A DNA stretch of 64,000 bases from Escherichia coli (GCF_024502345.1 NZ_JALDNN010000001.1), one strand, 5' to 3'; shown: positions 57,793 to 62,644, numbered from the stretch's first letter. The notes: generated by a model not told the origin, from the letters alone. Made by a program: numbers and translations.

Positions 57793-58251
57793 ATGACAAC
57801 ACAGACGCAGCACGACCTCGCACCCGCTAACCAACCCGAATTTGAACTGACCGTCACGCCGGTCCCCGATGAACAGCGTATCGATTTCTGGCCACAGTAC
57901 TTTGGCGCTATCCCGCAGTGGCTACTCCTGGAGCCGCATATCTTCGCCTGGATGGACCGCTTCTGTGAGGGCTACAGCGGTGGTATCTGGTCGTTCTACA
58001 CCCTCAGCAATGGCGGCGCATTTATGTCCCCCGAGCCTGACAACGATGAGACATGGCGTCTGTTTAACTGCCTGAACGGTAACGATGCCCAAATGAGTGC
58101 AGAAGCAGCAGGTATTGCTGTCTGCCTGATTGCGTATAGCCACCATGCCTGCCGTACAGAATGTGACGCGATGACCGCACACTATTACCGCCTGCGGGAG
58201 TATGCCATGCAACATCCAGAGGCTCACGCCATTCTGCGTATTATCGACTGA
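57793..58251 (+). CDS. antirestriction protein (YafX/YfjX/KlcA family)
   Basis: 152 aa: ...FWPQYFGAIPQWLLLEPHIFAWMDRFCEGYSGGIWSFYTLSNGGAFM... Confidence 0.85.
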   Translation: MTTQTQHDLAPANQPEFELTVTPVPDEQRIDFWPQYFGAIPQWLLLEPHIFAWMDRFCEGYSGGIWSFYTLSNGGAFMSPEPDNDETWRLFNCLNGNDAQMSAEAAGIAVCLIAYSHHACRTECDAMTAHYYRLREYAMQHPEAHAILRIID

Positions 58252-58266
58252 CCGAAGGAGCAACAG

Positions 58267-58743
58267 ATGAAACAGCTTTCCTTTTTACCCGGCGAGATGA
58301 CGCCACAGGACCGGCGTCTCATTCAGCGGGCGCTCAGGGCTCTGGACCGCCACCTGCATGAGCCCGGCGTAGCCTTCACCTCTACCCACGCCGTACGTGA
58401 ATGGCTGCGACTGCATATGGCCGCGCTTGAGCGGGAAGAGTTCCGGGTGTTGTATCTGGACAACCAGAATCAGTTGATTGCCCATGAAACGCTCTTCACC
58501 GGCACGATTAACCGCACCGAGGTGCATCCCCGGGAGGTGGTCAAACGTGCTCTGCACTTCAACGCGGCGGCGGTGATACTCGCGCATAACCATCCTTCCG
58601 GCGAGACGACACCTAGCCAGGCCGACAAAACCCTCACGCAGCGACTGGTTCAGGTGCTTCAGCTGGTGGATATCCGTGTCCTTGACCATCTGATTGTCGG
58701 TGGCAGGCAAATCTATTCGTTCGCAGAACACGGTCTGCTTTGA
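58267..58743 (+). CDS. RadC-like JAB-domain protein (YkfG/YeeS family)
   Basis: 158 aa with the JAMM-like motif HNHPSGETTPSQADKTLT. Confidence 0.88.
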   Translation: MKQLSFLPGEMTPQDRRLIQRALRALDRHLHEPGVAFTSTHAVREWLRLHMAALEREEFRVLYLDNQNQLIAHETLFTGTINRTEVHPREVVKRALHFNAAAVILAHNHPSGETTPSQADKTLTQRLVQVLQLVDIRVLDHLIVGGRQIYSFAEHGLL

Positions 58744-58751
58744 GGTATTAC

Positions 58752-58973
58752 ATGAAAATTATCAGTAAACGCAGGGCAATGACGATATACCGCCAGCATC
58801 CTGAGTCCCGAATCTTTCGCTACTGCACCGGCAAATACCAGTGGCACGGTAGCGTCTGTCATTACACCGGCAGGGACGTTCCGGATATCGCCGGAGTCCT
58901 CGCGGTATACGCCGAACGCCGCCAGGACCGCAATGGGCCCTATACCTGCCTGATGAGCATCACCCTGAACTGA
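58752..58973 (+). CDS. DUF987 protein (YkfH/YeeT family)
   Basis: 73 aa: MKIISKRRAMTIYRQHPESRIFRYCTGKYQWHGSVCHYTGRDVPDI. Confidence 0.8.
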   Translation: MKIISKRRAMTIYRQHPESRIFRYCTGKYQWHGSVCHYTGRDVPDIAGVLAVYAERRQDRNGPYTCLMSITLN

Positions 58974-58991
58974 CAATAGTGGAGAACTGTA

Positions 58992-59309
58992 ATGAGCAAC
59001 CCTACCAGGGGCCTGCAGCGGGAGATTACACTGCGCCTGGGAGCCCGTCTGGTGCAGGAAGGCAACCGACTGCATTATCTGGCTGACCGGGCCAGCATCA
59101 CCGGCAAGTTCAGTGACATCGAATGCCGGAAGCTGGATGAAACATTCCCGCACTTTATCCGCCAGATGGAATCGATGCTGACCACCGGTGAACTCAGCCC
59201 CCACCATGCCCACTGCGTTACCCTGTACCACAACGATTTAACCTGCGAAGCCGACACCCTTGGCAGTTGCGGCTACGTATACATCGCCATTTACCCCACT
59301 CAGCGTTAA
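58992..59309 (+). CDS. type IV antitoxin, CbeA/YafW family
   Basis: 105 aa: [40 protein letters not shown]. It lies immediately upstream of the CbtA-family toxin. Confidence 0.88.
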
Positions 59310-59329
59310 TTACCTACACGAGAGCAAAC

Positions 59330-59671
59330 ATGAAAACTTTACCTGCAACAACTCAGCGGGCGGTGAAGCCCTGCCTGTCACCCGTGGCTGTCTGGCAAAT
59401 GTTACTGACACGTCTGCTGGAACAGCACTATGGTCTGACAATAAACGACACGCCATTCTGCAATGAGGCTGTGATTAAGGAACACATCGATGCCGGTATC
59501 ACCCTAGCCGATGCCGTGAATTTTCTGGTAGAAAAATACGAGCTGGTTCGTATCGACAGGAAGGGATTTAGCTGGCAGGAACAATCTCCTTATCTCCGGG
59601 CTGCAGACATTCTGCGAGCGCGGCAGGCAACTGGCTTGTTGCGGCAAAGCCGTAACAACGTAGTACGATGA
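59330..59671 (+). CDS. type IV toxin, CbtA/YkfI family (cytoskeleton-targeting)
   Basis: 113 aa: [77 protein letters not shown]. Confidence 0.88.
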
Positions 59672-59736
59672 ACATTGCGTACAACCTTCCCGATTTACAT
59701 TTCTGAACTTCCTCCCTTGTTTACCTATTGCGTAAT

Positions 59737-60192: not shown

Positions 60193-60249
60193 TAATCTCA
60201 CCAATTTCTTCACAGACCGTGCAAACCTTCTCAGCTCTTTAAGCCCCCC

Positions 60250-60618
60250 TCACTGACGCGATCGGCTAAGAACAATATTACTTACTTCCCGATAAGAACA
60301 ACTGTTCATTAATCCGCATGCTTTCCTGGCATGAAGGATATCTGTCACGGTCAGATATGGCGCTTGTTCCTGTGAGGAAAATCCACTGCGATCGATACGG
60401 ACTAACTCATACTTCTCCACCAGAAAGTTGATAGCATTAGCCAGGGTGATACCGGCATCGATATGTTCCTGTATGACGGTTTCATCACAGAAAGGTGTAT
60501 CGTTTAGCGTCAGGCCATAATGCTGTTCCAGCAGACGACTAAGTAACATTTGCCAGATAGTCACGGGCGATAGGCATGGCTTCGCCGCCCGCATATTTTT
60601 TGCAGGTTGAAATTTCAT
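60250..60618 (-). CDS. type IV toxin, CbtA family, second diverged copy with a longer C-terminus
   Basis: 122 aa: [77 protein letters not shown]. Confidence 0.85.
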
Positions 60619-60638
60619 TTTTTCTCTCGTGAAAGTAA

Positions 60639-60956
60639 TTAACGTTGAGTGGGATAAACGGCGATGTATACGTAGCCGCAGCTGCCAAGGGTATCGGCTT
60701 CGCAGGTAAAACCGTCGTGGTACAGGGTGACGCTGTGGGCATGACGAGGATTCAGTTCACCGGAGGTCAGCATCAATTCCATCTGGCTGATAAAGTGCGG
60801 GAAAGTTTCATCCAGTTTCCGGCATTCGGCGTCACTGAATTGACCGGTGTTGCTGGCCCGGTCAGCCAGATAATGCAGCCGGTTCCCTTCTTGCACAAGG
60901 CGGGCTCCCAGGCGCGGCGTGATATCCCGCTGCAGGCCCCATGTGATGTTACTCAT
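60639..60956 (-). CDS. type IV antitoxin, CbeA family, second copy
   Basis: 105 aa: [40 protein letters not shown]. About 83% identical to the copy at 58992 by eye. Confidence 0.85.
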
Positions 60957-60975
60957 TGATAAACCTCTTTTATTT

Positions 60976-61197
60976 TCAATTCAGGGTGATGCTCATTAGA
61001 CAGGCATAAGGCCCGTTGCGATCCTGGCGGCGTTCGGCGTATATCGCCAGCACACCGGGAATGTCAGGAACCACCTTACCGGTGTAATGACAGACACTGC
61101 CATGCCACTGGTATCTGCCAGTGCAGAATCGAAAAATGCGGGAGGCCGGATGCTGACGGTAAATCGTCATTGCCCGGCGTTTACTGATAATTTTCAT
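60976..61197 (-). CDS. DUF987 protein, second copy
   Basis: MKIISKRRAMTIYRQHPASRIFRFCTGRYQWHGSVCHYTGKVVPDI. Confidence 0.8.
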   Translation of the reverse strand: MKIISKRRAMTIYRQHPASRIFRFCTGRYQWHGSVCHYTGKVVPDIPGVLAIYAERRQDRNGPYACLMSITLN

Positions 61198-61205
61198 GTC
61201 ATACC

Positions 61206-61688
61206 TCAAAGCAAACCGTGTTCAGCGAACGACAATATCTGCGTGCCACCGACGATGAGATGGTCAGGCACACGGATATCAACGAGCTGAAGCGCCTGCA
61301 CCAGACGCTGCGTGACAGCTTTATCAGCCTGACTGGGTGTGGTGTCACCGGAAGGGTGGTTATGCGCAAATAACACTGCTGCCGCATTGAAATACAGGGC
61401 CCGCTTGACCACCTCACGGGGATGAACCTCGGTGCTGCTGATGGAACCGGCAAACAGGATTTCGTGGGTAATCAACTGGTTCTGCTGGTTCAGGTACAGC
61501 ACCATAAACTCTTCGCGCTCCAGTCCCGCCATTTTCAGTTTCAGCCAGTCACGGGCAGCCTGAGTGGAGGTGAATGCCACACCTGTTTCTCGCAGGTGTC
61601 GGTCAAGCAGCGTTAAAGCGCGTTTTACCGTGCGTTGTGCGGCCAATGGAAGTGCCGTAGCCTGTGGGATAAGTGACTGTTCCATCAT
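61206..61688 (-). CDS. RadC-like JAB-domain protein, second copy
   Basis: 160 aa with the motif HNHPSGDTTPSQADKAVT. Confidence 0.85.
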   Translation of the reverse strand: MMEQSLIPQATALPLAAQRTVKRALTLLDRHLRETGVAFTSTQAARDWLKLKMAGLEREEFMVLYLNQQNQLITHEILFAGSISSTEVHPREVVKRALYFNAAAVLFAHNHPSGDTTPSQADKAVTQRLVQALQLVDIRVPDHLIVGGTQILSFAEHGLL

Positions 61689-61696
61689 AAGTATCC

Positions 61697-62644
61697 TTAA
61701 TCAATAATGCGCAGAATGGCGCTGGATTCAGGGTGCTGCAGAACGTAATCCCGCAGGCGGTAATAGTGTTCAGTCATGGCATTGCATTCGGTGCGACAGG
61801 TGTGATGGCTGTATTCAATCAGGCAGACAGTGATACCTGCGGCTTCCGCGCTCATTTGCGCACTATTGCCGTTCATGCCGTTGAACAGGTGCCATTTATC
61901 GTCACCGTCAGCATCAGGGGCCATAAACGCTCCGCCATTGCTGAGCGTATAAAAGGACCAGATACCGAAAGTCATCTCCGACTGGCTGCCGAAGCGAACT
62001 CCGGCGCGGATATGCTGTGCGCTACCGTCACCAAAGTTCACGTAGCCTCCATTGTCATGACCGTTATTCAGGGACAGCCCCTGCCAGATATACTGAAGCT
62101 GCGGCTCCAGTATCAGGCCATTGGTCACACTGAACGGCAGACCCGTTTCCAGCGAACCCAGCCAGCCCCAGCCGTGGGTAGCGAAACTGTCTGCATCAGA
62201 CGTCGCTTTCAGGTTATGACGGGAGCCCTGAGCCACCACATCTGTCCACAGGCCGCTGGCGGCATGCACGGCGGTCAGATAACCGCCCAGGCTGTACACA
62301 TCATCACGGGCACTCCCGGCACGGGAGCGGTCATCGTCTTTTATATCAACAGAAGAATGTCCCGCTGCACCATACACACCGGCTTTCAGCGAAGAGTTGC
62401 TCAGCAAGTCGCCGCCCAGTTGTACAAAGCCGTAGCTGCCGCTGCTTTCCGGTATCGCACCCTGCGCAATTCCGCCGTTATTTTCATGCCCCATATGACC
62501 ACCCTGGATGCGCCCCCAGACTCCGCTGCCACCTTTGACCGCGCTGCGCTGGTTGTAGCTACCTGCCAGTGCGCGGTCATAGTCCATGCTCTGCGCAAAC
62601 AGCGAAGCATAAAGAGCAACTTCAGCACGATAGCCAGCTTCGCT
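61697..62644 (-). pseudogene. chimeric frame: an internal piece of an Ag43-type autotransporter beta-domain fused to the C-terminal 89 codons of an antirestriction gene
   Basis: The frame reads ...GYRAEVALYASLFAQSMDYDRALAGS...GGHMGHENNGGIAQGAIPESSGSYGFV...AQHIRAGVRFGSQSEMTF | GIWSFYTLSNGGAFMAPDADGDDKWHLF...ILRIID*. The junction is at about 61966/61967. Confidence 0.8.

Follow-up and report, generated by a model that had tools for sequence, protein, structure and literature searches.

Why do two related, toxin-bearing gene modules stand tail to tail on one bacterial chromosome? The question is raised by a 64,000-nucleotide stretch of Escherichia coli DNA (GCF_024502345.1, NZ_JALDNN010000001.1; "the window" hereafter means this whole stretch), in which a plus-strand module encoding an antirestriction protein, a RadC-like protein, a DUF987 protein, a CbeA-family antitoxin and a CbtA-family toxin converges on a diverged counterpart on the minus strand. 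Homology, gene families, attachment-site repeats, synteny in relatives and recurrence in independent assemblies lead to an answer that we consider very probable: the locus is the junction of two integrative islands that entered a single tRNA gene, thrW, in succession. The convergent layout follows from island geometry and is no functional unit; it is rare but ordinary, and no new system.

Two diverged island tails in mirror image

The tail-to-tail arrangement is confirmed by a repeat search of the window, in which extended inverted similarity between the modules is present as three gapless blocks of 77-81% identity, far above chance (Table 1), and by Pfam, all ten open reading frames (ORFs) scoring above the gathering thresholds of PF03230 (Antirestrict), PF04002 (RadC), PF06174 (DUF987), PF06154 (CbeA_antitoxin) and PF06755 (CbtA_toxin). 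The boundaries originally predicted for the plus module (57793-59671) and the minus module (60250-61966) are exact, and the 578-bp spacer between them (59672-60249) is indeed AT-rich, with a G+C content of 39.8% vs 55.5% in the plus and 51.6% in the minus module. Gapped alignment with MAFFT puts the identity of the arms at 76.8% over 1,686 nt, with 35 gap columns, and the arms lie 578-689 bp apart. The imperfect inverted repeat is thus real, but its aligned arms measure ~1.65-1.7 kb rather than the 1.9 kb first proposed. Plus and minus proteins share 77.5% identity for the antirestriction protein (with only 89 residues comparable), 76.9% for RadC, 89.0% for DUF987, 83.8% for the antitoxin and 76.0% for the toxin; against this range of 76-89% and a five-gene mean of about 81%, an earlier estimate of 80-85% was roughly right, if slightly high. 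The mirror image also holds for the five gene families, but the minus-strand antirestriction gene is not intact as had been supposed: its first 65 codons are deleted and the remainder is fused to a fragment of Ag43.

By near-identity and by synteny up to thrW, the plus module is the tail of the K-12 island CP4-6. Window positions 56779-60068 match K-12 MG1655 from ykfB to the thrW 3' end at 99.8% over 3,291 bp; the identity continues 397 bp past the ykfI stop codon and ends at 60068, inside the 3' end of thrW. In K-12 itself thrW (262871-262946) lies 381 bp from the ykfI stop codon, so that the toxin end of CP4-6 does abut this tRNA gene, as originally stated.

The minus module belongs elsewhere. 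E. coli Z226-5 and Z226-6 carry the same junction as the window at 99.9% identity, and in the annotation of Z226-5 the minus module is the distal end of a ~28-kb island, followed by the CP4-6 tail. Read from the tRNA end, the Z226-5 order is proA, thrW, integrase, hypothetical proteins, a SIR2-family protein, arsC, AlpA, a GTPase and DUF932, continuing with WYL, Ag43, antirestriction, RadC, DUF987, the YeeU antitoxin and the CbtA toxin. The Z226-5 integrase adjoins intact thrW; in the genome from which the window derives, that island end falls beyond position 64000. Among K-12 islands the minus module lies close to CP4-57, to which it is 83.2% identical at the nucleotide level overall, with 90-92% amino acid identity for antirestriction and RadC; identity between the second island and CP4-57 is 89-96% from antirestriction through RadC and then falls to about 80%. 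The suggestion that the modules derive from distinct CP4-type islands rather than from a fresh inverted duplication therefore stands, with the plus module being CP4-6 at 99-100% and the minus module a separate lineage near CP4-57.

The thrW remnant and the polarity of the islands

Since homology to K-12 ends at the core of a thrW remnant, the spacer resolves into three pieces: a CP4-6 arm, the attR core of the second island and the distal arm of that island. With all attachment-site sequences given in tRNA orientation, K-12 attB reads GGTTCGAC, then the core TCCTATTATCGGCACCATT, then AAAATCAAATTG, with AAAATC directly after the core. Z226-5 attL has intact thrW with the same 19-nt core TCCTATTATCGGCACCATT, followed by island DNA toward the integrase. 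In the window, attR consists of the island distal arm, then TCCTATTATCG-CACCATT (60068 down to 60051), then AAAATC / AAAATCAAATTG, in direct orientation. On the minus strand, TCCTATTATCG-CACCATT corresponds to the last 17 nt of thrW plus TT, minus one G, and the portion of thrW present in the window amounts to 16 nt only. The tRNA 3' end is thus directly repeated at the distal island boundary, as an 18-nt core (60051-60068) vs the 19-nt core in thrW, and position 60068, where BLAST homology to K-12 stops, is the inner edge of that core. K-12 represents the precise empty site for the second island.

That no tRNA is visible at this locus, as the original prediction remarked, agrees with ARAGORN, which reports zero tRNAs in the whole window; it is silent because the remnant is a partial tRNA that it cannot call. 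The absence of the gene would itself result from the integration of the second island in thrW, which would have moved the intact copy beyond base 64000, to the other end of that island, as judged from Z226-5. An Rfam scan of 56700-63200 (E<=1) returned one chance match to a small nucleolar RNA below threshold, and the spacer holds no known small RNA; within the spacer, promoter-like sites occur at chance level (3 found, 2.0 expected), and a terminator scan finds one terminator-like hairpin, after ykfI. A 34-residue ORF in the CP4-6 arm (59787-59891, plus strand; MQPEVEVLTDHNELICSSFIEHIANTLNLGVVYN) is called by gene finders in several assemblies, and its first 21 codons coincide with the K-12 pseudogene ykfN.

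Convergence of the tails follows from the opposite polarities of the two islands toward thrW. Both have the same internal order, integrase first and toxin last, but in CP4-6 the integrase (IntF) lies beside the partial repeat and the tail beside the intact tRNA gene, whereas in the second island the reverse holds. A 60-nt direct repeat, in which 49 nt come from the 3' end of thrW and a further 11 nt are added, bounds CP4-6 in K-12: one copy lies in thrW beside ykfI, the other beside intF at the far end. The integrases of the two islands are distant relatives, with 22% identity along 147 residues of the catalytic domain; that of the second island is a tyrosine integrase and, as read in Z226-5, has the domains Arm-DNA-bind_3, Phage_int_M and Phage_integrase, of which Phage_int_M is absent from IntF. 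Neither polarity is peculiar to this strain. Among 50 CbtA loci of other Enterobacterales (L016-L067), inspected for tRNA genes within 3.5 kb, 16 have a convergent intact tRNA-Thr(CGT) or tRNA-Met(CAT) gene ~0.2-1.1 kb downstream of the toxin gene, and the remaining 34 have no such tRNA within that distance. CP4-type islands thus fall into two polarity classes relative to the tRNA, both of which are common elsewhere.

The attR core of the second island leads into the CP4-6 arm, so CP4-6 would have come first, its own arm then following the rebuilt thrW as it does in K-12. The second island, of ~28 kb, would have integrated into the thrW rebuilt by CP4-6 via the 19-nt core, such that the integrase of the newcomer would end up beside the tRNA and its five-gene tail at the far attR end. 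The tails would then face each other across the CP4-6 arm (379 nt), the attR core (18 nt) and the arm of the newcomer (181 nt).

The junction is rare, occurring in three of 5,426 complete E. coli genomes (Z226-5, Z226-6 and CAVP773). In CAVP773 it matches at 92.9%, and the island there is a related one with cbtA-yeeU-radC-DUF932 only. By contrast with the junction, the CP4-6 tail is found at 99% or more up to the core in hundreds of genomes, and among the matches listed it ends at tRNA-Thr (in many) or at some other inserted element. The element found at thrW next to ykfI differs from genome to genome, and these varied endings mark thrW as a hot spot. The phages P22, SfV and Sf6 also use thrW. 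Two candidate defence genes were encountered at this site: the second island of Z226-5 encodes a 1,210-residue SIR2-family protein (L003 18765-22397), and the element at thrW in strain JX21CE35 carries Avs2 (L007 9274 onward).

Table 1. Features of the locus and its flanks, in window coordinates; deletions are relative to Z226-5.
Feature	Position	Strand	Remarks
Heat-resistance locus, example stretches	41867-44809, 51621-53336, 53333-53830		within window ~41000-56000
IS5-family transposase fragment without N-terminus	56174-56770	-	right edge of heat-resistance locus
Deletion 1, 4,386 bp	junction 56779-56781		removes GTPase through most of yafY; L001 6783-11168
ykfB (YfjT family)	56912..57379	+	first intact gene of kept CP4-6 tail
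ykfF (DUF905)	57456..57695	+	annotation mapped onto window; Pfam family
yafX, antirestriction (PF03230)	57793..58251	+	100% to K-12
Inverted block 1	57982-58247 with 61701-61966		77%
ykfG, RadC-like JAB protein (PF04002)	58267..58743	+	99.4% to K-12
Inverted block 2	58342-58978 with 60971-61607		81%
ykfH, DUF987	58752..58973	+	100% to K-12
Inverted block 3	58991-59629 with 60319-60957		81%
yafW, predicted type IV antitoxin (CbeA family)	58992..59309	+	99.0% to K-12
ykfI, predicted type IV toxin (CbtA family)	59330..59671	+	99.1% to K-12
CP4-6 arm (K-12 thrW-ykfI intergenic DNA), 379 nt	59672..60050	.	
Terminator-like hairpin with U tract, after ykfI	59732-59766	+	folding z-score -3.2
ykfN pseudogene	59787-59849		within CP4-6 arm
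attR core of second island, 18 nt	60051..60068	-	K-12 homology ends exactly here
Distal arm of second island, downstream of its toxin gene, 181 nt	60069..60249	.	
Perfect 12-bp stem-loop without U tract, after second toxin	60164-60192	-	minus-strand transcript; folding z-score -3.3
CbtA-family toxin, 122 aa	60250..60618	-	76% to YkfI
CbeA/YeeU-family antitoxin, 105 aa	60639..60956	-	83.8% to YafW
DUF987 protein of second island	60976..61197	-	89% to YkfH
RadC-like JAB protein of second island	61206..61688	-	76.9% to YkfG; 91.9% to CP4-57 LfgB/YfjY
Fusion ORF, 296 aa	61697..62587	-	Ag43 autotransporter beta-domain fragment plus C-terminal 89 aa of antirestriction protein, in frame
Deletion 2, 655 bp	junction 61963-61966		removes 65 antirestriction codons, intergenic region, Ag43 3' end; L001 16357-17011
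WYL/YfjR-like regulator gene	62647..63012	-	3' end lost to 2,234-bp deletion
Deletion 3, 2,234 bp	junction 62651-62655		removes Ag43 5' part and WYL 3' end; L001 17705-19938
DUF932 gene of second island	63233..64000	-	cut by window end

Deletions, toxin-antitoxin pairs and rival explanations

Three deletions set the window apart from Z226-5; they fall within 8 kb and have junction microhomologies of 3-5 nt, and the second and third (4-5 nt) leave a 693-nt internal fragment of Ag43. The 4,386-bp deletion, which begins ~10 nt past the IS5-family fragment and is seen relative to Z226-5, E. coli C and many others, occurs in none of the complete genomes of the collection and is found again in GCA_050022275.1 and in Logan ERR3153746. 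The index of the public collection has the exact 296-residue fusion in 26 blocks, and at least 23 contigs carrying it were read (NCBI, ENA, Logan). Six contigs were retrieved, every one collinear with the window, and in two the match is 100% over 7.2-7.3 kb, a stretch that takes in the left-hand deletion. The three deletions are real. Since the 655-bp deletion took the upstream region of the minus-strand operon itself, the present expression of that operon would be uncertain.

Each tail is, on the evidence of its sequence, a standard CP4-type operon whose last two genes form a predicted type IV toxin-antitoxin (TA) pair. The toxins score 227.8 bits (ykfI) and 190.1 bits (minus copy) against PF06755 (cut-off 25), the antitoxins 167.0 and 176.8 bits against PF06154 (cut-off 27), and in both modules the antitoxin gene lies directly upstream of the toxin gene, in the same orientation, with a 20-nt gap. 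In YkfI/YafW and their K-12 paralogues, the toxin inhibits FtsZ and MreB and the antitoxin neutralises without binding the toxin (PMC5371832); by likeness, the minus-strand toxin may also block FtsZ and MreB, with its antitoxin acting on these targets. YafW, YfjZ and CbeA each neutralise YkfI, YpjF and CbtA, while the three genes upstream in the operon do not neutralise the toxins (PMC5371832). For LfgB, the RadC-like CP4-57 protein, protease activity that degrades the antitoxin MqsA has been reported (PMC10846083). The window does hold two non-identical pairs of this kind 578 bp apart, with toxins 76% and antitoxins 84% identical, as originally noted, but the question of cross-protection that was attached to them has already been answered for the K-12 paralogues. 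Some K-12 pairs that cross-neutralise are only about 58-62% identical, and since antitoxins of the family work across such divergence, cross-neutralisation between the two pairs of the window would be expected. A natural strain with two CbtA-family TA pairs therefore promises little new biology, the question being answered in principle.

Might the mirror image have arisen in assembly, or by a recent inverted duplication? With three deletions in 8 kb relative to the nearest complete relative, a collapsed assembly could be suspected. However, identity between the arms, for which a value above 98% would have signalled an artefact, is far below that mark at 76.8%, the junction is also present in complete genomes, and the exact fusion ORF recurs in the contigs of different projects described above, so that this explanation has next to no chance of being right. 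Inversion of one member of a head-to-tail tandem array, or of the spacer, by homologous recombination between the modules would also yield the layout, and it draws on the inverted homology of the modules, which extends over about 1.7 kb. Such modules have moreover recombined at some point: CP4-6 and K-12 CP4-57 are 96-97% identical around 58682-58880 (the RadC end into DUF987) and about 80% elsewhere, which, together with the drop in identity between the second island and CP4-57, marks the tails as mosaics of past recombination among island lineages. However, the attR core is direct with thrW, and the DNA on the CP4-6 side is contiguous and K-12-identical, as simple integration predicts. Hybrid genes are lacking, each module being uniformly CP4-6 or second island when compared with Z226-5; no perfect match between the arms exceeds 28 bp; and nine of nine genomes and contigs compared are collinear with the window. 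An origin by inversion is thus highly improbable. RecA-dependent exchange in E. coli needs perfect stretches of ~25 bp or more and drops by orders of magnitude at about 20% divergence, and hairpin/SbcCD instability concerns near-perfect palindromes with short centres. With arms 77% identical, perfect matches of at most 28 bp and a separation of 578-689 bp, both processes should be inefficient, and hardly any recombination is expected at the diverged inverted repeat. The proposal that it drives inversion of the spacer or hairpin-mediated deletions accordingly finds no footing in the 77% arms. Spacer inversion is ruled out in the material compared, as three complete genomes and six independent contigs all have the orientation of the window, with no inverted spacer or chimeric module among them. 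Deletion through the repeat is ruled out likewise: the endpoints of the three deletions are not symmetrical in it, each interval lies within one island, and microhomology of 3-5 nt is what illegitimate recombination typically leaves. A recent gene conversion of one arm by the other is ruled out as well, no 100-nt window exceeding 90% identity.

Perhaps, then, the convergent pair is a selected arrangement, providing mutual antisense control or using the resident antitoxin for anti-addiction against an incoming island. Both TA pairs are intact, and in this lineage the newcomer is in decay, having suffered two internal deletions; given that antitoxins of the family cross-neutralise (PMC5371832), resident YafW could blunt the toxin of the newcomer. 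However, none of 80 CbtA loci in species-representative genomes of other species has a second toxin gene within 3.5 kb, among complete E. coli genomes the junction is confined to the three named above, each toxin gene is followed by a stable hairpin of its own, and adjacency is unnecessary for cross-neutralisation. We consider selection for the arrangement very unlikely. A related reading, in which YafW and the incoming antitoxin each neutralise the toxin of the other pair, so that neither pair enforces retention of its island and decay is tolerated, strikes us as unlikely as well. If true, relaxed addiction would explain the stepwise decay of both islands by three microhomology deletions within 8 kb, and the locus would be a natural case of anti-addiction between co-resident type IV TA paralogues, possibly with antisense control by convergent read-through in addition.

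Successive integration into thrW, which we favour over these alternatives, has points of its own weighing against it. Intact thrW and the integrase of the second island lie outside the window and are placed by reference to Z226-5, which itself is without the three deletions. The attR core carries a 1-nt deletion. CP4-6 is heavily rearranged in K-12, and its original polarity is read from the present positions of the 60-nt repeat. Finally, TA activity and cross-neutralisation at this locus are extrapolated from the K-12 paralogues. The main value of the locus is that of a worked annotation example: mirror-image island tails without a tRNA can be resolved by a short remnant of a tRNA 3' end at the point where homology to a reference breaks off. 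A difference in polarity alone can create long, diverged inverted repeats in a chromosome.

The wider setting is chromosomal. Window positions 1-25000 correspond to the E. coli chromosome from prp through codA and lacZ to mhpA at ~98% identity, and 25001-50000 match E. coli strains with mmuP followed by clpK and FtsH of the heat-resistance locus; a plasmid origin is ruled out by this run from prp and lac through mhp to mmuP. The GC-rich block at ~41-56 kb (0.60-0.675) is the transmissible locus of heat resistance, comprising clpK, an FtsH-like protease, trx-GI, kefB-GI, psiE-GI, HtpX and a trypsin-like protease, the last five being annotated in a 100%-identical stretch of E. coli Z226-5. It sits between mmuP and the CP4-6 tail, a position that it also occupies in about 80 complete E. 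coli genomes.

Comparison with known systems

The K-12 island CP4-6 has the same gene order as the plus module, yafX-ykfG-ykfH-yafW-ykfI, with proteins 99-100% identical and the same downstream arm. Unlike in K-12, the arm in the window is no longer followed by thrW, since the second island intervenes, 4,386 bp are missing upstream (the GTPase through most of yafY), and the heat-resistance locus and the IS5-family fragment adjoin the tail. The nearest K-12 relative of the minus module is CP4-57 (lfgA(yfjX)-lfgB(yfjY)-ypjJ-yfjZ-ypjF), which has the same polarity as the second island, with the integrase beside the RNA gene and the toxin end distal. However, CP4-57 integrates at ssrA and the second island at thrW, the DUF987, antitoxin and toxin genes of the two share only about 80% DNA identity, the toxin has 122 residues in the second island vs 109 in CP4-57, and the antirestriction gene, unlike that of CP4-57, is truncated and fused to Ag43 in the window. 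The CbtA/CbeA (YeeV/YeeU) pair of CP4-44 belongs to the same Pfam families (PF06755 and PF06154) and has its antitoxin gene about 20 nt upstream, but the pairs of the window are only 58-69% identical to CbtA and CbeA, and CP4-44, unlike the modules of the window, is without an antirestriction gene in this position.

As in other cases of successive occupation of a tRNA hot spot, the elements here are delimited by direct repeats of the tRNA 3' end. Tandem elements at such a site usually lie head to tail, whereas the two elements of the window oppose each other in polarity, so that their homologous tails converge.

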